Notes under the pieces: generated by a model
Seen by the model: the letters and a program-made list of their open reading frames with translations, nothing else
What the model was told of the DNA's origin: nothing
The model's database searches: none
Part shown: piece by piece, positions 44,038 through 64,000 of the stretch
Numbering within the stretch: the first letter of the stretch is position 1
How the letters are laid out: the number at the start of each line of letters is the position of its first letter
Translations under genes and position numbers: made by a program
NCBI GenBank assembly: GCA_963718235.1
Contig: CAVQYR010000002.1
Span: 842,244 to 906,243 of the forward strand
DNA from: an uncultured Actinomycetota bacterium
GTDB lineage: Bacteria; Actinomycetota; Actinomycetes; JAHEKZ01
Reading direction: 5' to 3'
DNA: 64,000 nucleotides

Positions 44038-44046
44038 GTCACGGTA
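44038..44046. other. junction between actinobacterial and methanogen DNA
   Basis: Abrupt change in GC content and codon usage. rnj (+) and acs (-) are both truncated here. Confidence 0.88.
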
Positions 44047-45524
44047 TCTCCATAGAAGGCTCTGAGCATGGAAGGCCAGGGAGTATTGCTGACGATGTTG
44101 CCTCCTGTGCCGGGCATAACTGGGTTGGCATCTTCATCGAGGATATCGACGTGAATCCGGGCAGTGGGAATGTCGGCGAGCCAGGCTTGAGCGGGGTTAT
44201 GGGCAGGGGAGACACCAGGAATGTTCCGGTCTCGGTCTGCCACCAGGTGTCCATGATCTGGCATTTGTCGGCGCCGAAATGCTTTCTATACCACATCCAG
44301 GCCTCCGGATTAATGGGCTCGCCACAGATCCACAGCCTTATGCTGGAGATGTCGTATTCCTTGGTCCATTTCTCGCCGGCCTTCATGAACATCCTGATGG
44401 CCGTCGGCGCTGTGTAGAAGACGGACACCTTGTTATCCTGGATGATCTTGAACCACCGACCAAAGTCCGGGAAGTCGGGAGCGCCCTCGTACATCATGCT
44501 GGTTGCGCCTAGACAGAGTGGGCCGTAAACTATGTAGGAATGGCCTGTGATCCATCCGATATCAGCCGTGCACCACCATACATCGTTATCCTTTATTCGA
44601 AGACCCAATGCAAAGTCTGAGCCGGTCCCACGCAGTATCCGCCATGGACGTGCTCGATGCCCTTAGGCTTGCCGTGGTGCCCCAAGTGTACAGAATGAAA
44701 AGCCTGTCCTCAGGGTCCATCTTCTCATTCGCACTCCTCAGACTTTCCAGCCACAAGGTCGTGCCAGTAGATATCTCTGCCCTGCTTCATGGGCACTTCA
44801 ATTCCTGTCCTCTTGACCACTATTACGTTCTGCACCGATGGAGTATTGGCTGTGGCCTCGTCAACATTGGGCTTGAGGGGGATAGGCTTGCCGCGCCTGT
44901 ACAGACCATCCGTTGTTATTACCGCTTTGGCCTCGGCATCCAGGATCCTGCTGTTCAAGCCACCGGAGGAAAATCCGGAGAACACAATGCAGTGAATAGC
45001 ACCGATCTTGGCGATGGCTAGCATTGCAATGGGCAGCTGGGGGATCATAGGCATGTACAACATGACTCTGTCTCCCTTCTTCACGCCCAAGCTCTTCAGG
45101 CCGTTGGCGAACTTGTTGACCTCCTTGTAGAGCTGTAGATAAGTGATCTTTTGAGTGGGCTGATCGGTGGGTTCAGGCACGAAAATGTAGGCTACCTTGT
45201 CCTTCTTAGCGCCCAATGCGTGTCTATCTACTGAGTTATAGGCCACGTTGCACTTGCCGCCCAAGAACCACTTGGCATATGGCGGTATCCATTCCAGGGT
45301 TGATCCCCAGGGCTCAAACCAATCGGCATAGGTCTTGGCCATCTCGCCCCAGAACTGGACGTAGTTAGCAGAACACCACAAGCGCAACTCTCTCTCTGTT
45401 TTGAACCCTTTCTCCTTCATCCACTTCATGACATTGGAGTTCTCGACGAGTTCCTTGCTCGGCTCGAATACTCTGTCTCTTCATATAGAACTGATGTTTT
45501 TGCCGTTGCTTTTTGCTCAGCCAT
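44046..45524 (-). CDS. acs: acetate--CoA ligase (AMP-forming acetyl-CoA synthetase), Methanothrix-like; 3'-truncated with several frameshifts
   Basis: [77 protein letters not shown]. Confidence 0.93.
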
Positions 45525-45840
45525 TTTAATCCTCCTTCATAAAATGATGTTTCCAGATTCCCCTCCCCTGTCATTTATGCAGATTTTTGTGGCTAATAGA
45601 TTAAGGACTGGGCCCTAACACACAGGGGGTCTCAGAAACATCATCACGATTGATAATTTTCATCATTAATAAGCTTGGTGGTTTGCAAAACCTTATATAA
45701 AATCAATATTAACAATCAGGAGAGTTTATTTTTAATCGAAGCCTACGTATTTTGGCTGGCCACCTACGGTAATCGAATATCCTTAAAAAATTTATTGATT
45801 TTTTTCTATATTTTACATTAATATACTCAATACGAAGAAC

Positions 45841-47138
45841 CTAGTCGCGATTAAGCGGGGGGGCTGCTCGTGCCGATATATAGAATGGGTTTGATCCCGT
45901 TACCTCGGCTTTAATGGAGGATCCGAGCTTGGGATTGCCCTCAACTACTATTCCCAGATAGTTGGTGGCCCTGGCCTTCATGGTACCTCTCCTGCCGCAC
46001 TCGGTGACCACTGCATCCAGAACCCTGTCCATGTATTCCCTGTTCCTCTTAGCGGCTATCTCCAGCCAGAGCCGGGTCAGCTCTCTCGATCTATCCTTCT
46101 TGATGCGGTCAGGCATGTCATAAAGAAGGGCCGCGGCCGTGCCCGGCCGCCTAGAGAATTTAGTGACATTTACCTTATCCGGTTGCAGGAACTTAATGAA
46201 ATCCAATGTCTCGATGAAATCGAGGTCCGTTTCACCCGGAAATCCTACAATGATATCTGTGACTATTGTGATCTCTGGATAAGCAGATCGAAAGGCATCC
46301 ACAATCTCTGTAAAATCCTTTGCCGAATATCCCCGGCCCATGCTCTTGAGAATTCTGTCCGATCCCGATTGGACAGGGATATGCAAAAATTTGTATATTT
46401 TCGGGCTATGAAATGCTTTTATCAGTTCCTCCTGAAAGGATAGAGCGCTATTAGGATTCATCATGCCCACTCGCAACATGAAGTTTCCCGGGACCTGAAC
46501 CAACCTCTCCAGAAGTTCGGCCAGATTTGTTCCCTGGTCCGATCCGTACGCCGCCGTATCCTGGGCAGAGATTTGCACTTCCACTATCCCACTGGCGGCC
46601 AGCTTTTCCACGTCCTTTATCACTTCATCGGGCTTGCGGCTGACCAGCCTGCCCGGGCCTTTCGAACTATGCAATAGCTGCAGCCTCCGTTGCATCCTTC
46701 AGCCACATTGACAATGCTGCAGAGATCCGGGGCAGGGGAGCGGACGGGGGAAGTAACAGGTGAAGAGACCGGGGAAGAAGGAGTAAGATGCCTGGCGGCA
46801 TGAGAGAAGGAAGGTGAATCCCCAAAGAGATCTGAGATCTTTGCGGCCGCAGATCCATTTAGCGGTCCCAGCCGCTCACGGCATCTTATCTGGCGGATCG
46901 ATTCCGGGAGCGCGGCAGGCAGGCATCCCGCCACCACCAGTCTCTCACTCTGCAGCAATTGAAGTCTTTTCCGGATCTTTCGTTCCGTCCTTTCCGTCAC
47001 AATGCAGGTATTCAGTATAACAACATCCGCCTCTTCCAGAGATGAAGGGATATGGCCCAACTTTTGCAGAGCCTCGGACGTATCCTGCGAGTTGCCGAAA
47101 TTCGCGGTGCAGCCGTAAGTCTCAATATGGAATTTCAT
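45841..47138 (-). CDS. tRNA methylthiotransferase, MiaB/MtaB-like radical SAM (frameshift ~46655)
   Basis: ETYGC, NTC, GC (UPF0004 domain), AEGCNGGCSYC (CxxxCxxC), HIPVQSGS, TDIIVGFPGET, TRAM-like end. Confidence 0.9.
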
Positions 47139-47152
47139 TCTAGAACTCGACG

Positions 47153-48241
47153 CTACTTATTGGCATTGGGATCTTTGCTGCTTTTCACCATGCTCTTCCC
47201 ATATTTGGCCTCAGCTATCTCTTCCTTTCTCACCTGGTAGATTCCTACTATTACCCCCATGATCGCAGGGGCCAGGAAGAAGCCGCCTATACCTGCCACG
47301 AGGGCGCCTCCCAAAAAGGAGAGCAACACCAGCAAAGGATGCAAAGAGGATTTGGCGGAGACCAGATACGGCCTGATGAGCAGCTCTGAAGGTAGGAAGA
47401 TAAGAGCTGAAGCCAGCACAAAGAAGGTCAATGCTTCCCCTAACCCCATTGTGAAATACCTATACGCGGTCACAGGGATGATAACCATCCAGGAGGTGAG
47501 AACTGGGACCATACCGGCCACGAAGACTATGCTTGCCAGGGCAAAAGGCCTGGGCAGTCCAAAGGCATAGAATATGAAAGCCGCGATTAAACTGCCCACG
47601 ATTGAAGTATAGATCGTGCCTATGTAGATCCCGCTCAGGATCCGATCGATGCGATCTATGTACTTTCTATAGGCTTTCATCTCTTCATCCGGAAGCAGAG
47701 ATATTATCGCCTCCACAAACCCTTTGCCATCCATCAGCACAAAGTAGCAGATAGGGATCGAGATGAGGAAGTTCATTATTCCCAAAAAAAACGTTCTTCC
47801 AATTTGAATGACTGGGATTGATGAGGCAAAGGGGGTGATTAAGCCCGCGGCATTCTCCAGGCCGGCGGTCAACAAATCCCTCATCCATGAAGGTAGATCT
47901 ATTGCTGTCTGCTGCATCAGGATGCCAAGCCCTGATCTCATTGCCTCCTGACTGCGGGCCAGAATTGCGATCTGGTTGGCGAGTTCCAGAGTTCCCAGCC
48001 CCAGGATAAGAAATATAGGGACGACTATGCAGATGGCGGCTACCAGTGACCCCAGCCTTCGATGTGAGCCGAATTTATCCCGGATGGGTCTGCCAACATA
48101 AGCGAAGACCGTGCCGAGGATGATGCCGTCCAGGAAAGGAAAGATGAAATAGACAATCATGAGCACTGCAGCCAGGGCTAGGATCAATATCCATCTGTGC
48201 TCCGAACACCATCCACCCAGATCAGAATCTTTATATCGCAC
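47153..48241 (-). CDS. AI-2E (UPF0118) family transporter
   Basis: Multi-TM; IRPYLV...LHPLLVLLSFLGG...GIGGFFLAP. Confidence 0.88.
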   Translation of the reverse strand: MRYKDSDLGGWCSEHRWILILALAAVLMIVYFIFPFLDGIILGTVFAYVGRPIRDKFGSHRRLGSLVAAICIVVPIFLILGLGTLELANQIAILARSQEAMRSGLGILMQQTAIDLPSWMRDLLTAGLENAAGLITPFASSIPVIQIGRTFFLGIMNFLISIPICYFVLMDGKGFVEAIISLLPDEEMKAYRKYIDRIDRILSGIYIGTIYTSIVGSLIAAFIFYAFGLPRPFALASIVFVAGMVPVLTSWMVIIPVTAYRYFTMGLGEALTFFVLASALIFLPSELLIRPYLVSAKSSLHPLLVLLSFLGGALVAGIGGFFLAPAIMGVIVGIYQVRKEEIAEAKYGKSMVKSSKDPNANK

Positions 48242-48346
48242 CAGAAGAGTCCTAGCTTTTCTGATAGATATGAGTAACGCTTATTAAGTCTTGATTAAGT
48301 TTCAAGTATGTTTGGCTCCGTAAGACTGTATGCGCGGAAAGCTAAC

Positions 48347-49459
48347 TTAGCTGCCTGCCAGTGCGATCATCTCCTCCAGTTTCTCCCGGGCCAAACTCGG
48401 GTCCCTGTTTTGCTCCGCCACCCAGGCTTTTAGCTTCTCTATGGGTTTACCACTGTCAATGATGTCCGCAGCCTTATCCATGCCCTCCCTCAGGTCAAGG
48501 GCACGATCCGTGATACAGAGCAATGGAGAGGCATTCAGACATACGATCTCTCTCCTCTGGCCCCTATCAACGCCTGAGAGGATCTGGAGAAGCCTTATCG
48601 CTTCCTCAAATCTATCGCCCTGGTGAAGGATGGAAGGCTCGTCTGCCTTTGCCACACCCAGATCTTTAAGAGTGATGGCATATTCTCTGATCATTCCGTC
48701 TTCGGTCAGCTCTGCCATATGAGTCAGGCCGAGGGTCGAGAGCTCATCCATGCCCCTGGCATCGTCTTCGCTCCGGCCGTGCACGACAAAAGCTTTTTTG
48801 TAGCCTATTTCTCTCATGGCCTGGGCAATCGGCAGGACCATATCTCGGCTATAGACGCCCCGTACTCCATAGACAGGCAGAGCCGGATTGGCGAGAGATC
48901 CGGCGATGTTGAGGATGGTTCCAAATCTGATCTGAGAGAAGATCCTGTAAAGGGCAGAAGGGTGCACTTTTCCGCTCATGCCGTTGAAGATGCCGATGCC
49001 CGCTTTTTCGATGCTTCTCTTAACCAGGCTGACATCGCATTCTACATCGACCCCAAGCGTCTCCAGAATGTCCACTGCGCCGCATCTGGAGGTTATGGCC
49101 CGAGCCCCGTGCTTGGCCATATTTATGCCGTCGGCGGCAGCCACAATCGAGGCGGCGGTGCTGATGTTGAAGGTCTTGATGGTGTCCATGCCTGTGCCGC
49201 AGTTCTCCACCAATGGGCCGTTGACATCAGGGTGAACCTGCACCGTGTCGATTTCGTAGATCGCTTCCCAGATGCCGGCAATCTCCTCGGCGGTAGCACC
49301 TTTGGCGGTTATAGCTGCCAGGAATGCGCCCTGCTGCAGGTCTGGCTGCTCATTATTCAGGATCTGCTTGAACAGATCGTTGGCTTCGCCTCTGGTCAGG
49401 CTCTGGCCTTTTATCAGCGCGTCCACCTTGCTTCCGAAGTACCTCAAATTCTCTTCCAT
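48347..49459 (-). CDS. trpD: anthranilate phosphoribosyltransferase-family protein (divergent TrpD paralog)
   Basis: CGTGMD..KTFNIST, AKHGAR, GMDELS and LNAS motifs of the TrpD fold. Lies outside any trp operon. Confidence 0.82.
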   Translation of the reverse strand: MEENLRYFGSKVDALIKGQSLTRGEANDLFKQILNNEQPDLQQGAFLAAITAKGATAEEIAGIWEAIYEIDTVQVHPDVNGPLVENCGTGMDTIKTFNISTAASIVAAADGINMAKHGARAITSRCGAVDILETLGVDVECDVSLVKRSIEKAGIGIFNGMSGKVHPSALYRIFSQIRFGTILNIAGSLANPALPVYGVRGVYSRDMVLPIAQAMREIGYKKAFVVHGRSEDDARGMDELSTLGLTHMAELTEDGMIREYAITLKDLGVAKADEPSILHQGDRFEEAIRLLQILSGVDRGQRREIVCLNASPLLCITDRALDLREGMDKAADIIDSGKPIEKLKAWVAEQNRDPSLAREKLEEMIALAGS

Positions 49460-49471
49460 CTTCTAATCTCC

Positions 49472-50534
49472 CTAAACCCCAAATAATAGATTTCAGACCA
49501 TGTCTCTGAGAAGAATGACGAAATGCATCCTCAATGCTGGAAAGGGTCGTCCTTTTGGTGATGATCCAGTCCGCCTTTACCTTTCCTGATGTCAGAAATT
49601 CCACTGCCTGTCTATTCTGGCGGCTGCTGCAGCCGTAGGCACCCACAATCATCTGCTCACGGTAGTGCATTGATCGAAGATCTATCGGCTCTTCGTAGTT
49701 TCCCGGACGCGGTCCGAGAAGATGCAGATTCTTCCGCCGGGAGCCAGCAGCTTGATAGGCTGCCGTCCACCTTGACCTCTGGAGTCGCGGTCAGGATGAC
49801 ATCGACTCCCGCTCCGACGATTTCGTTTTGAATTATACTTTCCAGATTATTCGATCGATCCGTCGACTGGTCAATCGACTGGTTAGTAGATTGGTCAATC
49901 ACTCTGGCGCTGGTGTGCTTTTCGATCGCTCGAATGCGTCCTGGCAATTTTTCTACTACCATGACCGACGCGGCTCCCCGAAGTTCTGCCAGGAGGGCGT
50001 GCATAGCGCCAATTGGTCCGCCGCCATAGATCAGGACGACATCTTCTTCTGAGACCCTTGTCAGCTCCTGGCCGTTTATGCAGCAGGCCAGGGGTTCGCT
50101 CAGCGCGGCGAGCGCCGGGTCGACATTTTCAGGCAGCAAGTTCGTGCCTCTGGTCAGGTTAACCCCCGTGCAGGGGCAGTATTCGGCGAAGCCTCCGTCG
50201 CAGTTGAATCCCATGATCTTCATATTCCGGCAGCGGTTGTCTGCCCCTCGCAGGCAGGAGCCGCAGCGTGCGCAGGCGATCCCCGGCCAGACCTGGCACA
50301 GATCGCCTTCTCTAAGCGCAGTCACTATCGATCTCGACAATCCTGCCTACAATCTCGTGCCCCAGGATGCGGGGATAAGCGAGGTCTCTGTGACCCTGCT
50401 GCAGCATCTTGACGTCCGTTCCGCAGACGGCGCAGGCTTCCAGCTTCAGCAGGGCTCCGCCCGGGGGGCACTCTGGGCCCGGGCAGATCCTCCAGCTCCA
50501 TGACTCCCGGGCTCTTCAGAACGGCGGCTTTCAT
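49472..50534 (-). CDS. zinc-dependent dehydrogenase (MDR family, threonine/sorbitol dehydrogenase-like), several frameshifts
   Basis: CGTD, GHE, CARCGSCLRGADNRC, EPLACCING, GGGPIG, IVGAYG across ORF pieces. 3' end approximate. Confidence 0.85.
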
Positions 50535-50555
50535 GCTGATAAATTCATATCCTGA

Positions 50556-51596
50556 CTATTTCCCGGGCAGCTCTACCGTCATCAGCACGCGGTCCGTCTC
50601 CTCGACGAGCTGCTTTTGCGTGAACCCGTAAAGGCCCGCCAGAAGGCTGGCTCCGCCCATGCCCACGCCCTCTTTGACATAGCCCTGGGCATAGATCTGC
50701 ACCCCCGGGATCTTGGATCTCTCCAGGCCCGGATCGGCATAGTAGTAGGGCCTGCCCACGGATTCCACTATCTCCCGGAAGCTGGCGGTCTTGTCGTCCA
50801 TGATATATTTCGTGGTGGCAATGGAGATATCGCCCTCCACTCCCAGGGCCTTGCCAAGAGCCAGCACGGCAGCCATCTGCGTTCCGCCCGCCAGGACGAC
50901 CTTGCAGCTTTTCAGGCCGCTCATCAGGCCGAGCGCGGCAGGCATCATGGGGTCGCCCAGCTCCTTGATCGCATTGAAGGGTTCATCCTTCGAGGCTGCC
51001 CAGGGAAACACCCGCTCTTGTCATTGCTTCTTTGACTACCTGCTCTTTCAGCTCACTGGGGTTGGAGGCAAAGCTGCTGCTCACATTTCCGCTGTAGCCC
51101 AGGGCCCGGAGGACTGCCAGGGCGGTCGTTGTGCCTCCGGCTATGGATTCGCCAATAAAGACGCAGTCAGAGAGCCTGGCGAGCTTCTTCCCAGGAGTTC
51201 GGCTCTTTCATACATTCCACGAGGACCGTCGACGGCACTCTGCTTTCGGATGTCGTTTCCGGCCTGGCCGCCCAGCTCGACGTAAGGAATGGCCGGCTTC
51301 TTGCGCAGGCCCGAGGCCACGAAGAGAGAGGGAATGCCGGTCAGGTTCAGGGCCGCCTTGGTGACGATGGCGGGGGTCGGCGAGCCGCCCGGAGCCTCGG
51401 GCAGCTCGGGCATGGTGATGATCTTGTTGGTCTCCACCAGTTCCGCGTCTGCGCCGGGAGTGTAGTCGGTCAGTTCAGGCGATGTTCCCGCGGCGGAAAG
51501 GCCCGGTATCTTGCCGGTATCCGAGTTGGAGATGATGCAGAGGAATAGAGGCCGCTGGGGACGCGGACCGAAATCGGGGTAGATCCAGTTTGGCAT
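50556..51596 (-). CDS. cobT: archaeal-type nicotinate-nucleotide:benzimidazole phosphoribosyltransferase (frameshifts ~51180 and ~51020)
   Basis: IPGLSAAG...YTP.ADAE, PTPAIVT, GESIAGGTTTAL, GDPM, LAGGTQMAAV, VKEGVGMGG. Confidence 0.88.
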
Positions 51597-51981
51597 GAGA
51601 TGTACTGCGTGAGGTTCCTGTATATTAAATCAACGCAACATTATTTAATTCAAGTGGGATTGTCTGGCGAGAAAGTGGCGTTGAGCGTGGGTGGGCTGGA
51701 GGGCTCCTGCGAAATGTGGGATCAAGGTTATGATCTTGCCGGATGGAGAGAGGATCGCAACTGAGATAACCTAGAGACAGCGCAAAATCATGGATGCCTC
51801 CAGGACTTGCTTGGGAGGGATAGATCTTACCGTTCATGACATGAAGGTGTCTTCCTGCGCCGTCCAAATGTTCTGTTATTGGCATCAAGAGCTAGGCAAG
51901 AACTGAAAATTTCGATCCAATTTACTGGTAATTGATCTAGGAAGTTTGCTCTATAAATCGCTACGCTGCGAACATATATTA

Positions 51982-52066
51982 TGCGGGGAAAGGGATTCGA
52001 ACCCTTGAACTCCTGCGAGAATAGATCTTGAGTCTATCACCGTTGGCCTGGCTTGGTTATCCCCGC
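51982..52066 (-). tRNA. tRNA-Leu(CAA)
   Basis: GCGGGGA acceptor stem, ATAGA-CT-CAA-GA-TCTAT anticodon arm, long variable arm, GGTTCGAATCC T-arm. No encoded CCA. Confidence 0.95.
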
Positions 52067-52592
52067 ATCTGCTATTGTTTCTATGTACCTGTACATGTGC
52101 GCACACCTAGCTGCTGCACAGTACCACTCTAGCAGAGATATATTTCATGCATAAAAAGATATCCTTTGATCTGTCCAGATCGTATGACAGGCTGAATTGA
52201 AGCCTGGCGTTATTCGTTATAATGGATGCTTGTGACGATTGGATTGAAATCAATGTGGAGCGACTCCGAGTAGTTAACGAGCTAAGCAACATCAACTATT
52301 GCCTATATCGCAAATCCGGCCATTGCCTCTTGCAGATGGCATTCAAACAAATCAAGCGAACCCATTTACAGATATAGAGGCAGAATATTGAACGAATCAT
52401 TACATTTAGTTCCGATCTGCCATCTTCTCAATGATGCCACATCAGCAAAGCAATTTATAAATTTATTTTTTTACTGAAATAAGATTGTACCTCAGGATCA
52501 TTGTTTACTGAAGGCAAAATAGGAACCAATCCTTGAACTCATCCTTACAGGAAAAAGTCAGCCCGCGCCCCTAGGCCCGCTCCCTCAGCCGC

Positions 52593-52748
52593 TCACGCAT
52601 CCACATGATTCACGCAGATCCAGTGATAGTACCCGTGAATCCCCGTGCCCGTGACCTCATCGAACTCCTCCAGCTCCTGGCCGCAGATCTCGCATACCTC
52701 GCCATCCGGAACCTCGATCTCGGCATCATTGCATAGTACAATTACCAT
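52593..52748 (-). CDS. 51-aa acidic zinc-finger microprotein (CxxC...HxxC)
   Basis: MVIVLCNDAEIEVPDGEVCEICGQELEEFDEVTGTGIHGYYHWICVNHVDA*. High-GC3 codons inside an AT-rich neighbourhood. Below the ORF-track cutoff. Confidence 0.68.
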   Translation of the reverse strand: MVIVLCNDAEIEVPDGEVCEICGQELEEFDEVTGTGIHGYYHWICVNHVDA

Positions 52749-52849
52749 ATTCAGGCTCTATATCTGTTCGCGAGAAGCCATGAACCTTTCGGCGTTTTTG
52801 AGCTTAATTATAGAAAATTTTTTAACTGTAGAGCGACCAAGTTGCTTTA

Positions 52850-53604
52850 ATGGATTTGATCTATGCTTCTTTGGCGCAGACTGCAGCAACTGCCATCACC
52901 AAGAGACTAGATTCTACAGGCAGAGTCACCGTGGGCGATATAGAGATTTACTACGAGGTCCGCGGCCAGGTAGAGCCATTGCTCCCTATTATGGGCCTGG
53001 GAGGCCACTCTCTTGATTGGGGATGTATCTTGCCTCAAAGATTGGCGGATGATCGCTATAAGGTGATTATGTTTGATAATCGCGGCGCCGGACGGAGCGA
53101 TCGGCGTCCTGGCCTCTGCACCATTACGCAGATGGCCGGAGATACCGTTGGCCTGATGGATACATTAGGAATTGACCATGCCCATTTATTCGGAGGAAGT
53201 ATGGCAGGTATGATTGCCCTGCAAATGGCATTGGATCACCCAAAGCGCATCGATAAGCTGGTGCTCGGGGCCACAACTGCCGGCGGGAGATCCAGGACCT
53301 TTCCGCTGCCAATCTTGCTTACCCGAGCACGCTTGCGTCCTACGAAGCCCAGCTTGAGGCCTTTATGGCTTTCGATGTGGATGGGCGCTTGGATACGATT
53401 CGTGCGCCTACAATGGTGATAATCGGGAATCAGGACGTACTGATTCCGCCGCCAAATAGCTTCCTGATAGCCAGGAGAATCCCGGGGGCACAAATACGGG
53501 AGATTGAGGGAGCTGGGCATATCTTCTGGATCAGCCATTGCGAGGAGACCGTATCGATAGTGACGGACCTCATTTCATGGAGGTGCTTTAAAATAGCTTT
53601 TTGA
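52850..53604 (+). pseudogene. alpha/beta hydrolase, frameshifted and apparently lacking most of the cap domain
   Basis: IYYEVRG, FDNRGAGRSD, GGSMAG (nucleophile), then a second frame with PTMVIIGNQDVLIPP...GAGH. Break at ~53300-53340. Confidence 0.7.
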
Positions 53605-53669
53605 CGGCCACGGTCTTGTGAATTCAGGTAATCGCTAAAGGCATCGGAGAGAAGAACATTATAGCTCAT
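53575..53669 (-). pseudogene. truncated RelE/ParE-like toxin
   Basis: MSYNVLLSDAFSDYLNSQDRGRQKAILKHL resembles a RelE N-terminus, overlaps the upstream gene, then runs into antisense hydrolase sequence. Confidence 0.45.
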
Positions 53670-53862
53670 CCTCTTCGAACCCCAGATCAATCATGAGCTT
53701 ACTTAAGGGTATAGCCTTTCCCTCTTTATATTGCCTGTCTGCAGATTCGAGCATCTTCATGACAACAGGATCCCGAAGAATATCCTCCGTCTCAGAATCG
53801 CCGACGCTCTTGCGCAATCCTGCCGAAGACTCGGCTGGCTTGATCGTCTTTCTTCTTCCCAT
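53659..53862 (-). CDS. putative type II antitoxin
   Basis: 67 aa with ETEDILRDP..MKMLESADRQYKEGKAIPL, a pattern typical of antitoxin C-termini. Overlaps the toxin start. Confidence 0.55.
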   Translation of the reverse strand: MGRRKTIKPAESSAGLRKSVGDSETEDILRDPVVMKMLESADRQYKEGKAIPLSKLMIDLGFEEDEL

Positions 53863-54108
53863 GCATTCTCCAGGAGAACACGTGATCCTCAATCTGCGAT
53901 CGATCTTCCTTTGAGTATCTATGGAGTAATAAGCCTCGTCTCAATTCGGACAACCAAATGCAGGGATGCTCTTGATTACTTCCACCAGCTCCCCTATTCT
54001 TGCGACAAATTCTGTTGTTCGTTCTCGCATTTTGCTTTTGCACAAGAGGCATTCACAGAATCGCATTTTCCGCAAGGTTTTCATACCCGGTTCCAGGAAT
54101 GATTATTT

Positions 54109-56924
54109 GTGAACGTTTTCGGTCAGCTTGATAGCCAGATCAGGGCAAGGCTGTTGGAGCAGTCCATCTTTGAGCCGACGCTGCCGCAGGAGCAGGCCAT
54201 ACCTGCGATTTTGGCCGGAGAAAATGTGCTCCTCATTGCGCCCACCGGCACCGGCAAGACTGAGGCTGCGAGCTTGCCTATCTTTCATAAGATTCTTGCC
54301 GGCGAGCGGAAGGGCATCCAGGCGGTATACATCACGCCCCTGCGCGCGCTGAACAGGGATATGCTGCGCCGATTTCATGATTGGGGAGAGAAGCTTCACA
54401 TCACCGTAGCTGTACGTCACGGCGACACCAGCCAGAGTGATCGGAGGAAGCAGTCGCTCAAGCCCCCGGATTTGCTGATCACGACGCCGGAGACGATGCA
54501 GATAATGCTGACCGGAAAGCGATTGCGCCAAAACCTCTCCACCGTCAAGATGGTGGTAGTCGATGAGGTGCATGAGATGGCCACATCCAAACGCGGCTCG
54601 CAGCTGGCCGTGCTCCTGGAGAGGCTGGCAGAGCTTGCGGGCGACTTTCAGCGTGTAGGTCTCTCTGCCACTGTCGGCTCTCCTCGAGGCCGTGGCCAAA
54701 TTGCTTGTCGGAACCAGTCGCACCTGCAAAATCGTCCAGACCGAGATGGAGAGGGCGAGCGACTTTCGGGTAGTCAGCCCTCAGGCTACCCGGCCAGACT
54801 ATGCCATGGCAAGCCAGCTTGAGTGCGATCCCCGCCTGGCAGCCCAGATTCGCTGGATCAGGGAGATGGTGCATACCAGAAAGTGCCTGATATTCGTCAA
54901 CACCCGGCAGGCGGCTGAGGTTCTGGGCTCACGATTCAGGCAGCTGGGCGAGCCCATCGGCGTCCATCACGGCAGCCTCTCTGTGGAAGCGCGGGTGGAA
55001 GCGGAGGAGGCCTTCAAGGCCGGAGCCCTGCGGGGGCTCATCTGCACCTCGTCCATGGAGCTTGGAATTGATATCGGAGATGTGGATCACGTCATCCAGT
55101 ACAGTTCGCCGCGCGAGGTTTCGAGGCTGCTGCAGCGGGTAGGCCGCGCCGGCCATAAGATCGGCCTCATCTCTTCCGGGACCATAATCGCCACCTGTGC
55201 CGACGACGTGGCCGAGGCCTGCGCTATCTCCCGCAGGGCGGCAGCCATGGAGTTGGAGTCGATCCAGATTCATGAGAAGCCCACCGATGTCCTGGCCAAC
55301 CAGATTGTGGGATTGGAGATGGATTTTGGGGATATCAGCCTGGAAAAGACCCACCAGATTGTCACCCGGGCCTACCCCTTCCGGGATCTGACACCTGAGG
55401 AACTGCAAGGAGTCGTCGACCAGATGGAAGAACACAGGCTGGTTCGACAGTACAACGGGATTTTGCAGAGAACTCGCAAGGCGCGAGAGTATTACATCGA
55501 GAACCTCTCCATGATCCCGGATGAGAAGAGGTTCAACGTCTACGATATCGTGGGCCGCCGGTCTGTGGGAACTCTGGACGAAGCCTTCGTGATCAGCTTC
55601 GCCCAGCCGGGAGCCACCTTCGTCACCAAGGGAGAGATCTGGGAGATCACGGAGATCGGGGAGAACGAGATCAAGGTCGTCCCCATTCACCGCAGCGGCG
55701 AGATTCCCAGCTGGACTGGAGAGGAGATTCCCGTTCCCTTTGATGTGGCGCAGGAGGTCGGCCGGATCCGGCGAGAGATCCGCGAGACCCTGGAGAAGGA
55801 CGAGGGCGGAAGTGGGAATGGGAGCACGCTTGCCATAGAAGAGCTGCGAGGAAAGTATCCGGTAGACCAGGAAGCGGCAGAGGAGCTGGTCGACCTCATA
55901 AAAAAGCAGATGGAAAAGAACCTGCCTGTTCCCGATGAATCACATATCGTTGTGGAGAGCGGTGGCGAGGGGGCCATCATCAACGCCTGCTTCGGCCACA
56001 AGACCAACGATACCCTGGGAAGGGTCATAACCTCCATCCTTTCCGCTCGCTTTGGGAGCAGCGTGGCCCTGCAGATAGATCCCTATCGAATCGAGCTGAC
56101 GCTGCCCAAAGTCCTGCTGGCGGAGGAGATAGAGAAGATGATCCTGGATCTGGACCCGACTTATGTGGAGCCCATCCTGGAGATGACCCTGAAGAATACC
56201 ACGCTCCTGCGCTGGAAGATGGTGCATGTGGCCCGCAAGTTCGGCGCCTTCTCCAGGGACGTGGACTACCAGAGGGTGAGCATGGCGAAATTGCTGGCGG
56301 TCTTCGAGGGCACGCCCATGTACCGGGAAGCGCTGCGGGAGATCTACCACGACCGCCTGGACATAGAGCTTGCAAAACGGGTGCTGGAGAGGATACGGGA
56401 TGGAACGATAGCCATCACGACCAGCGGGCTCTCGCCCATTGGAACCAGCGGCCGCGGTGGAGGCAGAGACGTCACCTCACCGGAGCATGCCGATGCCGCA
56501 GTAATCAACCTTCTTAAAAATAGGATCATGAACGACCGGGTGCTGCTTTTTTGCGTGAACTGCAAGAAGTGGAAGTCCATGCGCCAGGTCGAGCGCGTGC
56601 CCGAGCAGCCGGAGTGCCCCTTATGCGGGTCACGCATGGTGGCCGCACTCAAGCCCTGGGAGGAGGAGGAGATCAAGGTGGTCAAGAAGCCGGAGAAGAA
56701 GAAGACCGCCGAGGAGAAACGCAGGACAAAAAGGGTCTTTCGGAATGCCAATCTGGTCTTGAGCTACGGCAAAACTGCAGCAATAGCCCTGGCCAGCCGG
56801 GGACTGGGGCCGGAGACGGCAGCGAGGGTAGTGGGAAAACGGCAGAGGGATGAGCTGGAGTTTTACAGGGATATTCTGAAGGCGGAGAGGGAGTACTGCC
56901 AGGACGAAGAGGTTCTGGGGATGA
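54109..56924 (+). CDS. lhr: Lhr-like DEAD/DEAH-box ATP-dependent helicase (frameshifts ~54685 and ~56897)
   Basis: [49 protein letters not shown]; C-terminal CxxC...CxxC. Confidence 0.92.
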
Positions 56925-56979
56925 TCTTCGTCCTGACCGTGATAAGAATATTAATAGCTATCGAAGATACTATCCATTA

Positions 56980-57366
56980 CTATGCAGGCTGCAACGAAAT
57001 CAATTCTACCTTAATAAAATTATCTCCATTAATATCCTCCTGATTGCTTAAATAGCCGGTAATAGTCACGCTTGCACCAAGCTCAGGAGTGTATCCTCCC
57101 CATGATTGATTTTCAGATAAGAAATGACCCTGGACGGTGATGTAGTAGTAGGTGCTGTCTGCCAGCACAGCATAAACCATACCGGGCAAACAGGGCTTGG
57201 TCGTACATGGATTGCTGGCATAAGAATACAGCCCGGTAATAGTACGCAGGTCGTCCTCAGACTTGCTTAATGCCAGAAATATTGGGCAAGAAAAAGCTAA
57301 CCAACACAAGTAGGCCAGAGAGGCCCCGTTGAGAGTTAATGGATCAAATAGCATAATGGAGTCCAT
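56980..57366 (-). CDS. hypothetical small, possibly exported protein
   Basis: Hydrophobic N-terminal stretch, then NPCTTKPCLPGMVYAV and a beta-rich sequence. AT-rich. Start uncertain. Confidence 0.45.
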   Translation of the reverse strand: MDSIMLFDPLTLNGASLAYLCWLAFSCPIFLALSKSEDDLRTITGLYSYASNPCTTKPCLPGMVYAVLADSTYYYITVQGHFLSENQSWGGYTPELGASVTITGYLSNQEDINGDNFIKVELISLQPA

Positions 57367-57796
57367 TCTATCACATCACATACTTCATAGATTTGTCAGA
57401 TTGCAACAGATCAGCTTTCGGTTGTTCCTGTCTGCATTGGTTCCAATTAATGAGGAGGGTGCATTGCGAAAAGATGCCGTGCTGCATATTCATCCGGCAC
57501 GAGCAGATCGGCTGGACAATCGAATTGGAAAAGCCCACTGTTTGAGAAGGGCAAGGCCAGACACAGCCCATCCGCATAATCCGGCCCGCTTTGGACGGCT
57601 CGCAGGAACTGCTGCCGCTGCTCCCGGCTCATGCCCCCGAGCACGAACGCTTGCCAGGCGATCCAGCCCGCCAGAACGACATCGCCGCAAGACCGAACGG
57701 CCGACACACGAGCCGCCACGAGCGCAGCTCTAGGCATGGTCAGCCAGCTTGATGACACTTGATTGTTCAATCTCTGATTTATATCTCCTATTTCAG

Positions 57797-58596
57797 TCAC
57801 TCATCTCTCATTCCCGCCATGGCACTTGCCAGCATCACCGGCCCATCAAAACCCGTGCGGGCCCGGCTGGAGTCTATGAAGATTTCGTCCATCAGACACA
57901 GGTGCGCCATAGGACTTGGCCCCGCACAAGAGTAACATCGTCCGGAAGATCAGGTTCCCAGAGATGCCATCCGGAGCTATGACGATGTCGTCTCCCCGGC
58001 AGCTCTCGATGAGTATCCCTTTGTGGCGGGCCTGCAGGCCGGCCTCTTGTGCCCGAGCGGCGATCAGCTCTCCCTCAGCAAGGCTGCGGTCTACACGCTC
58101 GCACCTGCCCAGGTCCTCCATCCTGCCGCCCGAGAGTACAGCCGCCGTTGGCGCTACGCCCATGCTCTGCAAGAGCTTCGCTCCCCCCAGCACCAGACCC
58201 AGACGATCCTGAACCGTCTCCCCCTCGTCAATGCCTACCGGCCCCAGCAAGAAGGCCCAGCCGGATAGCTCCAGCAGGGCTAAACGCCTTACTGGAACTG
58301 TCGAACTGCCCGGCCAGGGCCCGCATGGTCCTTCCGGCTGGCAGGTTCCCGCGCACTGCGCCCTCGATCTCGCCCGCGGCCAGGAGTCGCACCAGCTCCT
58401 TCCAGGGCTCTTTCGTGGGCAAGCAGTCAAAGGAGCATTCGCAGCATGGCTCGCCTACCAGAAGAAGATCAGCGAACTTCGCGGCCGACTGCAGGGAAGC
58501 AATCAGATCTGCGTCTGCATTCCATATACCGATGCCGATGCGAGCTTTCTTGGCCCGGGCCTTATCCCGCAGAGATTTTACAAAGACGGAGTCCAT
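57797..58596 (-). CDS. mtxX: methanogenesis marker protein 4 / MtxX-like (frameshifts ~58295 and ~57895)
   Basis: GAVRGNL, FLLGPVGIDEG, AVLSGGR.ED.GR, IAPDGISGNLIFR, FIDSSRA. Confidence 0.85.
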
Positions 58597-58597
58597 C

Positions 58598-59560
58598 TCA
58601 ATGTATTCCAGTTACGCACTCTTTTGTCAGATCGAAGAGCACAACCTCTTCCGATCCCTGGCGGATGATGAGCCGCCGATCTTCAGACACCCGGCCAATG
58701 ACACTCGCCGTGAGACCGCGCCTCTGGAATACTTCCAAAACCTTTTCGGCATCCTCTGACTTCGCGGTGACGACAAATCCCATTCCAGGATACATCTTCA
58801 GCCAGCTTGTCAGGTCCAAGCCCATCGGAATGGGGATAGTCTCCACATCCACCACAGCACCCACCAGGCTCGTCTCCAGCAGCATGCCGAGCGTCCCCAG
58901 CAGTCCGGGATTGCTGATATCCTTGCCCGCCCTGACAAGGCCTCTCTCGCCAAGCTCCTGCATCGCGCCCAGCTGCATGAGAAGCGTTTTCCGGTCCTTG
59001 AAGCTGGTGGAATCGAAGTTTATGGTGAACTTGGGGTGGGCCTTGCCATCCATGTCTGCTGCCGCAATTATCAATTCACCAGGCTTTGCCGTGCTGCTCA
59101 AGATCACCGCATTCTTCTTCGCCTTGCCGAGAATGGCAACATCCAGAGCGCTGTAGGGAGTGTCCGGATGAAGATGTCCGCCGATAATGGGCACATTGAA
59201 CTTCTCAATACCCTTCTTCATACCCCGCAGAACCTTCTCTGCAATCTCAGGGTCGCCAACCGACAGGACATCCACCATGGCCACCGGCCAGCCGCCCATG
59301 GCCGCGATATCGTGCACATTCACCAGAACCGAACAGTAGCCCGACCATTCCGGATCAACCTCCATCAGTTTGGACCAGATACCGTCCGCGGCCAGGAGCA
59401 TGACCTCTTCGCCGTCGTCTATCACTGCGGCATCCTCTCCGAAAGATGCAATGATGCGCTCGGATTCTATGGGAAAGAATTGCATGAGATCACCAATCTG
59501 CTTTTTGCGAGTGATCCCCACAAATCCGCGCAGCTCAGCTGCCAGAGACTCCAGATTCAT
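58598..59560 (-). CDS. methanogenesis marker protein 2 (PurM/AIR-synthase-related)
   Basis: GITRK, FGEDAAVI, LAADGIW, LVNVHDIAAMGG, GGHLHPD, GKDISNPG. Confidence 0.9.
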   Translation of the reverse strand: MNLESLAAELRGFVGITRKKQIGDLMQFFPIESERIIASFGEDAAVIDDGEEVMLLAADGIWSKLMEVDPEWSGYCSVLVNVHDIAAMGGWPVAMVDVLSVGDPEIAEKVLRGMKKGIEKFNVPIIGGHLHPDTPYSALDVAILGKAKKNAVILSSTAKPGELIIAAADMDGKAHPKFTINFDSTSFKDRKTLLMQLGAMQELGERGLVRAGKDISNPGLLGTLGMLLETSLVGAVVDVETIPIPMGLDLTSWLKMYPGMGFVVTAKSEDAEKVLEVFQRRGLTASVIGRVSEDRRLIIRQGSEEVVLFDLTKECVTGIH

Positions 59561-60127
59561 CAGTGAATGATTGAGCTTTGATCAAAAATAGATGTCGCTA
59601 AAATGCGGCCGCAAAGTTCTTAACCAGGATACTCTGATAAGAAAATGCAACGCTTCAGGATAACGCGTTCTCCATAAGGAAAAGTTCCAGTGGAAGAATG
59701 TCGTAAGAAATTTTAGGATGTTTCTATAGATATCGAAATTTTGGAACATAATAAATAATTGTAGCGAATTCATCTAGCAAAACTCCATATTAACGACATG
59801 CTTTGTAGTATCTGCACATTCGAAGCAGACGGGTAGAATAATAAATTATATTATGAAGTTGGTCGGAAAAGACATCTTTCGTCTCTTTCCAGCAAAAAGC
59901 TTCTATCTGGTATGACCCCCAAAATGAGAGAAAAACCCTTAATCATTTCCAGCATGCTGATAGTTGAGCCCAGTCGCATTCCGGAAGGAATGTGATTCGG
60001 GAAATTGGAAATGAGTACTATGAGAGAGAAGCCTTTGAGGGACAAGCCTTTGAAAGGCAAAACCTTTGAGAGCAGAAAACATTTATGAATCTGTGCCGCG
60101 TTTGGGCTGAGATGGGGTTTTGAAAAA

Positions 60128-60556
60128 TTGCTGATCAGAGATTTCAGGCTAGGTCGCTGTCTGGTGGCCAGGCTCGACCACGGCAAAGACATCATCGGTC
60201 AGATAACCGATCTGGCAGTGGAGAAGGAGATCGAGACAGGCTTCGTGAATGCTATCGGTGCTCTAAGCAGGGCCGAGCTGGGCTACTATGATCAGGCTTC
60301 TCAAAAATACATTGAAATCCAGATCGACGAACCGGTGGAGCTGGCATCCTGTTCGGGAAATATATCCCTGCGGGACGGCCAGCCTTTTGTGCACGCTCAT
60401 GCCGTTCTGTCGGACCGGGAGGGAAGGGTATGGGGAGGCCACCTGACCTCCGGCCCGGTCTTTGCCGCAGAACTCTATATGCAGGAGCTTCTGGGCCTGC
60501 CTCTCAAAAGAGTGCCTGATTCGATAACCGGCTTGAATCTATGGAGTGAAGAGTGA
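60128..60556 (+). CDS. PPC/DUF296 domain protein
   Basis: [30 protein letters not shown]...GGHL. Confidence 0.9.
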
Positions 60557-63500
60557 AGAATTCCGAATACTTCGAGTTCTTGCAGCAAGGCCTGACCAAT
60601 GCCATGACCATAGCCCAGGCGGCTCGCGCCCGAGGGTTGGACCCCACAACGGAGGTGGAGATACCGCTTGCAGTCGACCTGGCGGAACGAGTAGAGAAGC
60701 TGATCGGCATCCCCGGCATAGCTGTGCGGATCCGGGAGCTGGAAGAGCAGGGTTTGAGCCGGGAAGAAGCAGCTCTTGCTATAGGTATCGATTTTGCCGA
60801 AGGCCGCCTGGGAAAAGGCACCTCCAAGATCGAATCCGTGGAAAACGCCATTCGTACATCGGTCGCCCTGCTCACGGAAGGAGTCGTCGCGGCGCCCATC
60901 GAAGGAATCGCTCGCGTGGACCTGGGAAAGAATGACGACGGAACTGAGTACCTCAAGGTCTACTACGCAGGTCCCATAAGATCGGCTGGCGGAACCGCTC
61001 AGGCCTTATCAGTTCTCGTGGCGGACTATGTGCGCAGAAGCGTTGGCATAGCCCCCTGGAAACCGAGACCAGAAGAGGTGGAGCGCTATGTGGAGGAGAT
61101 TGGTCTTTACAAGCGCGTGGCCGGCCTGCAGTACTTCGCCTTCGGATGACGAGATCCGGATCATTGTGCGCAATTGCCCTATCTGCATCGAAGGAGAACC
61201 CACCGAAGAGGAAGAGGTCTCAGGATACCGTGACCTGGCCAGGATCGATACCAATCGAGTGCGGGGCGGCATCGCCCTGGTCTCGGCGGAAGGCATCGCC
61301 CTGAAGCGGCCCAAGCTCAAGAAGCATGTCACAAAACTGGGCATCACGGGCTGGGAGTGGCTCGACTCCCTGGCCAGCGGCAAAAAGGAGGGCGGGGACA
61401 CCACACCCAAGTTCCTGCGCGACCTCATTGCCGGCACGGCCTGTATTCTCTCATCCCTCCCGGCCGGGCGGCTTTCGGCTGCGTTATGGGCGGGCCAGAA
61501 ATACGGGCCTGGCTGCAGCTGGAATCAACCCCGCCAGCATGCTGCTCCTGGGCGAGTTCATGGCCGCCGGAACCCAGATCAAGGTGGAGCAGCCCGGCAA
61601 GGCGGCAGCCGTAGCTCCGGTCAGCTCCATCGAGGGGCCGACAGTGCGACTGCTGAACGGAGATGTGGTTCGGTTCGATTCCGATCAGGATATCCTGGAA
61701 TGGATGCCCATCAGCTGCAAAGATCCCAAGACCATCCAGCTGGCTCTCAAGGCCCATGTTTCCAAGATTCTGGACCTGGGAGAGATACTGATCAGCTACG
61801 GCGAGTTCCTGGAGAACAACCGGCCATTGGCCCCGGCCTCCTATGTCTTCGAGTGGTGGGCTGAGGAGCTGAAGAAAGCGGGTGGCGATCCAGCCGGCCT
61901 GGAGCAGATCGATAGCGTTAAAGCCATAGAGCTTTCCAGAAAATATGGCGTCCCACTTCATCCGGCTTACACCTATCTCTGGCACGATCTGACTCTGGAA
62001 GAGTACGAGCAGCTGGCCGAAGTCGCGATCTCGCAAGGCATTCTGGAATCAGGAAAACTCCTCCTCCCCCTGGAAGCCAAGGATTCTTTGGAGACACTGC
62101 TGGTGCACCATAAGGTCCGGGAAGGAAAGGCGATAATCGAGGATCCCCTGCCGTTCCTGCTCTGCCTGGGGATAACTCTGGAAAATGGCGCCCTGAAGCG
62201 ACTCCCTGACGAGCCGAGGGAAGATGAGCCAGATGAGAATATCAATAAAAATATAAAGAAGATAATAAAGAAAAGGATGTGAAAGCGGATTCGGCGCTGG
62301 CAGCTGTCAACAGGCGATCAGGCCTCGTCGTTCGCGCCCGCGCGCCCACGCGCATCGGCGCCCGCATGGGCAGGCCAGAGAAGTCCGATAAAAGGCTGAT
62401 GCGCCCACCTCCGCACGTTCTCTTCCCGGCAGGAGAAGAAGGCGGCAAGTCGAGGTCGATTCAGGAAGCTGCCAAACACTCCACAGGCAATGTAACCGGC
62501 ATGGTCAATGTGGAGATCGAGAGGCGCGTCTGCAAAGACTGCAAAAAAGAGGGCTTTGCCTTCCGGTGCCCGTGCGGCGGCTACACAGAGAAAAAGAGGG
62601 TCTGCCCCAAATGCAATGTCCAGGCTCCAGAGAAGTGCCCCAAATGTGGAGAAGAGACGAACGCTGCCTCCAAGATGCAAATCGACATGAAAAAGCTCTA
62701 TCACCAGGCGCTGGAGCATCTGGGTGAGCGCGAGCCGGAGACACTAAAAGGGGTCCTGGGCCTCTCCTCCCGGGATAAGACCCCGGAGCCTCTGGAGAAA
62801 GGCATCCTGCGCGCCAAGCATGGCGTGAACATCTTCAAAGACGGCACAGTGAGGTACGACCTCACCGATCTGCCGCTAACTCATTTCCGCCCGGACGAGA
62901 TCGGCACCGGCACCGAGACTCTGCAGAGCCTGGGCTATACGGAAGACATGCATGGCGAAGCTCTGACCATGCCGGATCAGGTCTGCGAATTGAGGGTGCA
63001 GGACATCATTCTATCCAGGGATGCAGGAGACTATCTTCTCAAGGTTGCCATGTTCGTGGATGAGCTCCTGGTCAAGTTCTATGGTCTGGAGCCCTACTAC
63101 AATGCGAATTCGCCCAAGGATCTGATCGGGCACACTGATGGTGGGCCTGGCTCCCCATACCTCGGCAGGCGTTCTCTGCCGGCTCATCGGCTACAGCCCG
63201 GCCTCGGCGGGATTTGGGCATCCCTTCTTTCATGCCGCCAAGCGCCGCAACTGCGACGGAGACGAGGACTGCGTGATGCTGCTCATGGATGCGCTTCTCA
63301 ACTTCTCCATGTCCTACCTCCCAGCAAAGCGAGGCGGCAAGATGGATGCCTGCCTGGTCATGACCACGATCCTCAATCCTGCAGAGGTGGACAAAGAAGC
63401 TCACAATCTGGATCTGACGGCCGTTTATCCGCTGGAGTTCTACGAGGCTACACTTCTCGGCACCAATCCCAAGGACCTGGAAGGGAAGTTCGATCTGGTC

Positions 63501-64000
63501 TCCAAGCGTCTGGGCACTGATGCCCAGTATGAGGGCTTCAACTTCAGCCATGGCACATCGGATATCGCGGCCGGTCCGAAGAACAGCGCCTACAAGACTC
63601 TGGAGACCATGGTCGATAAGATGGATGCCCAGCTGGAGCTGGCGCGCATGATCCGAGCCGTGGACGAGCAGGATGTGGCGGAAAGGGTCATCAACTCTCA
63701 CTTCCTGCCCGATCTGATCGGCAATCTGCATGCCTTCTCCAAGCAGAAGGTGAGGTGCGTGAAGTGCGGCGCCAAATACAGACGCCCACCGCTGAAAGAG
63801 ACCTGCCCCAAATGCGGCGGCAAAATGATTCTCACTGTGCATGAGGGGAGCGTGCGGAAATACCTGGAGGTCTCCATAAAGGTGGCGGAGGAGTATGGCG
63901 TGAGCAGCTATACCAAGCAGAGGCTACAGCTCCTGAAGATGGAGATCAATTCCCTCTTTAAGAACGATAAGGCCAAGCAGACGGGATTGGCGGATTTCAT
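60553..64000 (+). CDS. polC: DNA polymerase D (II) large subunit DP2; several frameshifts; stop codon just beyond the window
   Basis: [64 protein letters not shown], zinc fingers, C-terminal PIP-like QTGLADF. Confidence 0.96.

Follow-up and report, generated by a model that had tools for sequence, protein, structure and literature searches.

Why does a gene resembling trpD, the gene for anthranilate phosphoribosyltransferase, lie beside cobT and a dehydrogenase gene and away from any tryptophan operon? The question is raised by positions 48347 to 51596 of the window, that is, of the whole 64,000-nucleotide stretch analysed here, which forms the final 64 kb of contig C2 in the GCA_963718235.1 assembly. 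Three genes are encoded there on the minus strand: cobT (50556..51596), for an archaeal-type phosphoribosyltransferase dependent on nicotinate mononucleotide (NaMN; TIGR00303), the gene for a zinc-dependent medium-chain dehydrogenase/reductase (MDR) of the Tdh/polyol-dehydrogenase branch (49472..50534), and the trpD-like gene (48347..49459), which is intact and encodes a 370-aa protein of the GTGMD/KHGAR type. As the original prediction had it, the genes are co-oriented with gaps of 21 nt (cobT/MDR) and 12 nt (MDR/TrpD-like), and the 20-kb archaeal part of the window showed no further trp gene. That prediction saw in them an undescribed cobamide pathway, possibly acquired next to a tRNA-Leu gene; the cobamide link in outline, the paralog status of the TrpD-like protein and its altered acceptor site stood up to analysis, and the acquisition did not. 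A link of the paralog and the MDR to cobamide synthesis is well supported. We further consider it somewhat more probable than the contrary that the two form a conserved two-enzyme module of cobamide lower-ligand or nucleotide-loop metabolism, which belongs to a Methanothrix-type operon and whose copy in the window was mis-joined and carries consensus errors.

The TrpD-like protein has both the profile and the fold of TrpD. It scored 272.4 bits against TIGR01245 (cut-off 199.05) and matched PF00591 with 187 bits and PF02885 with 56.7 bits. The AlphaFold2 model of its orthologue in L005, a close relative in which the operon is intact (87% protein identity), had a predicted local distance difference test score of 90, and its top PDB matches were all TrpD (template modelling scores of 0.8-0.93, 28-36% identity). 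The motifs quoted in the original prediction, GTGMD, FNIST, KHGAR, DE and RIFSQIRFGTILN, are all present in the 370-aa translation. When the protein was aligned with HMMER to the solved TrpD 9ucw (phmmer, 6.9e-55), IFSQIRFGT stood opposite VRKELGIRT. A Phe had been placed at the position of the conserved Arg, and indeed Phe174 occupies that of the first Arg and Gly180 that of the second; however, Leu is the usual residue at position 174, both in the paralog family (97% of the rows compared below) and, at place 48938, in the contigs of all four sequencing runs used for the frame check.

We compared 36 paralog rows with 69 rows of canonical TrpD. The residues for phosphoribosyl pyrophosphate (PRPP) and Mg2+ were common to both groups (G88, T89, G90, D92, N98, S100, T101, K116, H117, G118, R120, D238 and E239). 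In contrast, the acceptor site was altered, as had been claimed. The paralog has M91 where 100% of the canonical rows have Gly, A119 for Asn (100%), L174 for Arg (100%), L183 for Phe (100%), S162 for Ala (99%), S188 for Pro (99%), I157 for Phe (97%), R178 for Gly (78%) and G180 for Arg (75%), with further differences at W64, N86 and E286. The three anthranilate-site residues are thus not those of canonical TrpD: the Asn of KHGNR has become Ala or Ser, the Arg of VRxxLG has become Leu or Phe, with a new Arg at position 178, and the second Gly of GTGGD is replaced, the paralogs from our loci reading GTGMD in 77 cases out of 77. In TrpD, anthranilate is held by the Asn and Arg that the paralog has lost; the PDB includes the M. 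tuberculosis TrpD variants N138A, R193A, R193L and R194A.

These replacements mark a family of its own. A scan of 1.84 billion representatives yielded 9420 matches, the best-scoring of which combined GTGMD (in a few cases GTGAD) with (K/R)HGAR or (K/R)HGSR; from about 207 bits downwards, the matches had GTGGD, KHGNR and VRxxLGxRT. In a tree of 127 rows, the paralog and canonical types parted with an SH-like approximate likelihood ratio (SH-aLRT) of 98-99, and 30 of the 31 rows with GTG[MA]D fell into one clade of 34-36 rows, inside which bacteria and archaea were interleaved. Paralogs of archaea and bacteria share at least 60% identity, and the mean column identity is 73%, compared with 51% for the MDR.

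A separate trpD for tryptophan synthesis was found wherever we looked for one. The assembly comes from a different, high-GC organism (see below), so the check was made on relatives; a high-scoring trpD elsewhere in the assembly (368.6 bits, on contig C1) lies in the 70% GC part and is therefore uninformative about the methanogen. We searched five paralog-bearing genomes (Methanothrix, the closest Methanosarcinales metagenome-assembled genome (MAG), Methanomassiliicoccaceae, Dehalococcoidales and Syntrophoarchaeum), and all five contained a second trpD (311-436 bits, compared with 271-281 for the paralog), located between trp genes in four of them and adjoining trpC in the fifth. The paralog was never within a trp operon in the loci seen, its neighbours being the MDR and cob genes. 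Taken together with the separate clade, these results uphold the view that it is a paralog and not the tryptophan enzyme.

The MDR is the closest companion of this paralog. Scanning one genome per species (243 relatives), we kept 80 loci, and in 77 of them an MDR homologue was directly beside the TrpD-like gene; in the remaining three (L024, L059 and L072), the side expected to carry it is cut off by the end of the contig. Both genes were full length in 70 of the 80 loci. The MDR gene precedes the TrpD-like gene in Methanotrichaceae, Methanomassiliicoccales, Dehalococcoidales and Firmicutes, and the order is reversed in ANME-1 (anaerobic methanotrophic archaea) and Syntrophoarchaeum. The search also returned two longer TrpD-like forms. 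One of these, P0121 (732 aa), is a fusion of an MDR (50% identity) with a TrpD-like protein (55%). The other, P0122 (787 aa, from a metagenome), joins the TrpD-like domain to PF03415 (peptidase C11), possibly through a gene-calling artefact. A protein fusing a TrpD-like domain directly to CobT did not turn up among the long forms of either protein that we searched. In one Methanotrichaceae MAG we observed two MDR-TrpD-like pairs (L009 and L017), cobT being upstream of one pair and not of the other.

The catalytic apparatus of the MDR is conserved as well. In 35 orthologues the zinc ligands C37, H59, E60 and E147 and the structural C88, C91, C94 and C102 (L005 numbering) were invariant, as were the GxGxxG motif and E195; judged from the sequence, this acidic residue suggests NAD as the cofactor. 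Assigning the enzyme to a named family was less straightforward, since the L005 MDR stayed below every NCBIfam cut-off, including those of IolM (170.8 bits against 450) and of the two L-threonine 3-dehydrogenase models TIGR00692 (150.9 against 458) and NF003808 (146.2 against 380). Its best solved relatives are 4ej6 and L-threonine dehydrogenases, the latter at about 1e-42.

The cassette clusters with cob genes across distant lineages and is preceded in bacteria by a cobalamin riboswitch. A CobT gene lay within 3 kb and on the same strand in 52 of the 80 loci, 46 times of the archaeal type (TIGR00303) and 6 times of the bacterial type (PF02277), two types that look unrelated to each other. In Dehalococcoidales the operon reads btuCD-cbiB-cobD-[riboswitch]-MDR-TrpDl-cobT-cobS-cobC-(PF01902)-cobU, and in L065 and L075 the pair is embedded in a full nucleotide-loop operon. 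In five of the six bacterial loci, the riboswitch (RF00174, 98-116 bits) precedes the MDR gene by 20-133 nt, the sixth having no upstream DNA; for two of these five (Peptococcaceae and Desulfitobacteriaceae), the vicinity contains no other cob gene. The Rfam search of the archaeal window gave no riboswitch. Fusions point the same way: P0321 joins an MDR to CobT, its MDR part being full length and 31% identical to the cassette MDR, and the 120 best long CobT relatives are mostly BluB-CobT fusions, that is, fusions of a base synthase with CobT. Neighbourhood, riboswitch and fusions thus support the predicted link to cobamide synthesis.

Two further observations concern these operons. Just upstream of the TrpD-like gene in L056 (5563-5976) there is a CobT remnant, parts of which match residues 97-170 and 317-390 of the L079 CobT; this arrangement suggests an internal deletion, and an intact CobT is present at another place in that genome. 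Moreover, a gene for a PF01902 protein (PP-loop, 'diphthamide synthase'-like) is located within the Dehalococcoidales cobT-cobS-cobC-cobU operon and again near the cassette in ANME-1 (L065, 9703-10389; L072; L056, 2902-3609), and may be another cobamide-linked gene.

How does the copy in the window compare with those of its relatives? The GC content of the window stays at 68-74% for roughly the first 44 kb and then falls to 48-58% until the contig ends some 20 kb further on (52% GC for this stretch). The rest of the assembly, which consists of two contigs totalling 3.17 Mb, has 67-74% outside the final two 20-kb bins of C2, save for one bin at 64%. At the step (44040-44055), two genes are cut, one on the plus strand for a metallo-beta-lactamase/RNase J-like protein and one on the minus strand for acetyl-CoA synthetase (acs). 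The low-GC part (44050-64000) carries archaeal genes, namely those for the large subunit DP2 of PolD, archaeal-type CobT and the Lhr helicase, and the organism-named closest relatives of the TrpD-like protein are from Methanothrix, Methanosaeta and Methanotrichaceae (71-98% identity among the matches listed). The contig end is therefore Methanothrix-like DNA mis-joined to the high-GC contig of another organism, and the join, 70% GC host DNA against 52% GC Methanothrix-like DNA, is placed at 44040-44055 by the GC step and the two cut genes.

In this part of the window, both cobT and the MDR gene are broken. The former is spread over three frames (51596-51141, 51207-50983 and 51020-50556) by one missing and one extra base, and matches TIGR00303 piecewise only (124.2, 61.6 and 111.2 bits). 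The latter also occupies three frames (50515-50312, 50346-49657 and 49790-49353), with pieces matching PF08240 and PF00107, and the 1063 nt of the gene are no multiple of 3. We compared positions 48300-51700 with short-read contigs of four runs from four studies, which are 95-99% identical to the window. For cobT, the contigs of all four runs add a C behind 51186 and omit one base at 50991, which accounts for both shifts, and for the MDR gene all four differ from the window by indels at 50317, 49713 and 49479. In L005 the operon is intact, with a cobT of 346 aa, a 2-nt gap, an MDR of 355 aa, a 13-nt gap and a TrpD-like protein of 370 aa, and its CobT is a full-length archaeal CobT (311.4 bits; TIGR00303 cut-off 240). 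Other genes of the same 20 kb are likewise split: PolD DP2 lies in at least five frame pieces, and acs, a MiaB-like methylthiotransferase gene and that of the Lhr helicase are also fragmented (split genes at 60553-63998, 44039-47138 and 54109-57043). The archaeal part thus looks like unpolished consensus. Because the four runs are unbroken, PolD DP2 and other genes are split too and L005 is intact, the frameshifts are most likely consensus errors and not gene decay. We had also considered coverage by long open frames as a measure of the error rate and dropped it, as high-GC DNA has long spurious open frames. Compared with L004, the MDR gene of the window contains a 24-nt in-frame extra segment (about 49876-49900) within the repetitive run QSTNQSIDQSTD.

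What, then, would the pair do? Its function is very likely cobamide-related, and it probably carries out an undescribed step of B12 assembly. The likeliest role, which we put forward tentatively, is that of a supply unit giving CobT its base, because the arrangement is analogous to those of BluB-CobT and bza-cobT. The paralog would still be a PRPP-dependent phosphoribosyltransferase using another nitrogen nucleophile, one without the ortho-carboxylate; the NAD-type dehydrogenase would act on the same metabolite in the step immediately preceding or following that of the paralog; and the product, a base or a ribotide, would be passed to CobT, giving the module a role comparable to that of BluB or BzaAB/BzaF. 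A more specific and rather doubtful version would make the pair a fourth route to a cobamide lower base, one that depends neither on oxygen nor on radical-SAM (S-adenosylmethionine) chemistry. The paralog would use PRPP for the N-ribosylation of a simple nitrogen compound, the sugar-amine adduct would be processed by the dehydrogenase and the base would go to CobT. Benzimidazole, 5-methylbenzimidazole and purine are candidate bases for such a route.

Several points weigh against the module and its role as just described. There was no CobT within 3 kb in 27 of the 80 loci, one further locus having only the L056 remnant, and the Methanomassiliicoccales loci lack cob neighbours altogether. Arg178, Arg200 and Lys147, which are specific to the paralog, may indicate that the acceptor carries an anionic group, a poor fit for the neutral aromatic amine of the original prediction, and the score above the NCBIfam trpD cut-off may mean that some anthranilate activity is left. 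We know of no common metabolite that would serve as the acceptor. If the pair supplied a base, some complementarity with known base routes would be expected; in a class-wide count covering 112 genomes of one bacterial class, 8 of them cassette carriers, this was not seen, since BzaB exceeded its cut-off in 3 of the 8 carriers and in 38 of the 104 non-carriers. Finally, the evidence on the frameshifts comes from contigs of strains related to that of the window (95-99% identical) and not from reads of the source sample.

We also considered whether the cassette stands in for a known route. As a substitute for BzaAB it was rejected, given the co-occurrence with BzaB in three of the eight carriers. 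ThiC-like copies numbered 2, 2, 1, 1 and 0 in five genomes, none of them at the BzaB cut-off, and the models cannot separate BzaF from ThiC. As a substitute for CobT it was rejected as well: ten carrier genomes chosen for a locus without a full CobT neighbour gave a clear CobT match in seven cases, a weak one in two and none in one. Nor is the cassette a trait of corrin-ring auxotrophs, CbiC being present in five genomes out of five.

Other functions can be imagined for the pair. CobT consumes NaMN and releases nicotinate, and the paralog could be a nicotinate phosphoribosyltransferase returning this nicotinate to NaMN, so that alpha-PRPP would lead to the alpha-ribotide through two inversions. 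This chemistry suits a PRPP enzyme that inverts at C1, and the new Arg178, four residues past the lost Arg, could hold a more distant carboxylate. The known nicotinate phosphoribosyltransferase (NAPRTase, PF04095) was moreover absent or weak in the first ten cassette genomes (0 of 5, then 1 of 5 with a weak 23.2 bits, compared with 8 of 14 controls). We nevertheless regard this recycling as unlikely: it gives no role to an obligate and sometimes fused dehydrogenase, NadC was found in all five genomes tested, meaning that NaMN is made anyway, and in the class-wide count NAPRTase showed no clear complementarity (4 of 8 carriers, 69 of 104 non-carriers). It is still less likely that the paralog makes the beta-ribotide of a lower base from PRPP, which the dehydrogenase then epimerises at C1' via a transient 2'-keto intermediate, yielding the alpha-ribotide without NaMN. 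Such a route would place both enzymes on one metabolite, consistent with the MDR-TrpD-like fusion, and agrees with the replacement of acceptor-site positions by hydrophobic residues; however, it would replace CobT, and CobT adjoins the pair in 52 of the 80 loci, is clear in most of the ten carrier genomes (7/10) and is fused to an MDR in one protein. Nor do we know of an MDR that works as a C1' epimerase. As nicotinate recycling and the substitution of BzaAB or of CobT are all unsupported, the module would seem to make a contribution of its own beyond the known routes.

In a further alternative, the Tdh-like dehydrogenase would make aminoacetone or aminopropanol from threonine for the linker of the nucleotide loop, and the TrpD-like protein would be an accessory. 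L-threonine dehydrogenases are indeed among the best solved relatives of the MDR (about 1e-42), and in Dehalococcoidales the pair comes just after cobD. Against this stand the scores with the Tdh models (146-151 bits, cut-offs 380-458) and the fact that the PRPP enzyme, the more conserved partner (73% against 51% mean column identity), is left without a role; in addition, the known linker route uses threonine phosphate and CobD. We hold this supply of the linker to be very improbable. The paralog could also be just another TrpD isozyme that serves tryptophan synthesis and came to lie beside cobT by chance, as its 272 bits with TIGR01245 and every public name seen for it would imply. This is the least credible of the explanations, since positions that are 97-100% conserved in the 69 canonical rows are replaced, a canonical trpD stands beside trp genes in all five genomes, cobalamin and not tryptophan controls the paralog through its riboswitch, and the linkage to MDR and CobT is kept across phyla.

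One alternative applies to the window only, namely that the frameshifts are genuine, in an operon undergoing decay, or that the operon is an island acquired at the tRNA-Leu. A tRNA-Leu(CAA) gene is located 385 nt upstream of cobT (51981..52067, minus strand; ARAGORN, Rfam 50.7 bits), and the frames are broken in the deposited sequence. At 51656, the contigs of two runs (X2 and X4) leave the window with one common sequence and X1 follows the window; this divergence reflects either a second join or a rearrangement between strains in the DNA upstream of cobT. On the other hand, all four runs carry unbroken versions and the essential PolD DP2 is equally broken in the same 20 kb. The tRNA gene is not a conserved neighbour: none of the 16 related loci has a tRNA gene within 6 kb, and homology to the closest locus ends just upstream of cobT. 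In addition, no open reading frame of the region matched an integrase family in Pfam scans. The cobT-MDR-TrpD-like operon is kept across the Methanotrichaceae, so that there is no sign of an acquired island. The acquisition proposed in the original prediction is thus not supported, and decay or an island seems quite unlikely.

Downstream of the TrpD-like gene and co-oriented with it, the window encodes an AI-2E family transporter (47153..48241, minus strand; PF01594, 142.4 bits), and homologues of this gene follow the TrpD-like gene in 36 of the 80 loci, all among L004-L050. Together with an SSF transporter in L052, it may leave room for a salvage variant of the module.

Among described systems, TrpD itself (EC 2.4.2.18; TIGR01245; PF00591 and PF02885; PDB 9ucw, 1zyk and 3qr9) shares with the paralog the fold, GTGxD, NxST, KHG, R120 and the DE pair. 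The paralog differs in its separate clade, in F157I, A162S, F183L and P188S, in the new Arg178 and in the replaced Gly, Asn and Arg of the acceptor site, as well as in having an MDR partner, a cobalamin riboswitch in bacteria and a place outside trp operons. YbiB/TrpD2 and the AMP or thymidine phosphorylases have in common with it the N-terminal helical bundle and part of the alpha/beta domain; their models matched weakly (40-54 bits, cut-offs 185-535) and over residues 11-160 only. Like the L-threonine 3-dehydrogenase and polyol dehydrogenase Zn-MDRs (PDB 4ej6, 2d8a and 2dfv), the cassette MDR has the Cys-His-Glu-Glu set, a structural Cys4 zinc and GxGxxG; unlike them, it is paired or fused with a PRPP enzyme, is about 30% identical to them and falls far under the equivalog cut-offs. 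The organisation recalls BluB-CobT and bzaAB/bzaF-cobT, in that accessory enzymes stand beside cobT or are fused to it and are riboswitch-controlled in bacteria. The cassette families are however unrelated to BluB, BzaAB and BzaF, with neither the nitroreductase fold nor the radical-SAM ThiC fold, and as the cassette co-occurs with BzaB in three of eight genomes, it is not a simple BzaB substitute. A full-text literature search, which did not cover supplements, found no description of the MDR-TrpD-like pair. A figure legend in PMC8620254 places a trpD and a dehydrogenase among Chlorobium cobalamin-region genes and does not comment on them there.

The gene-family finding is real, and the window copy is a fragment laden with errors, located at the chimeric end of a contig; the finding thus also flags this error-rich stretch of the GCA_963718235.1 assembly. 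Every public name that we saw for the paralog family is 'anthranilate phosphoribosyltransferase'. Since the family scores above the TIGR01245 cut-off, this is likely a mis-annotation of a systematic kind, and reconstructions of the tryptophan pathway consequently count the paralog wrongly. Cobamide lower ligands decide which microbes can share B12-type cofactors, and we know of no established origin for several of the natural lower bases, benzimidazole, 5-methylbenzimidazole and purine among them. Altogether, the module is widespread, occurring in methanogens, ANME-1, Syntrophoarchaeum, Methanomassiliicoccales, Dehalococcoidales and Firmicutes, and it is strongly conserved, riboswitch-controlled and CobT-linked.

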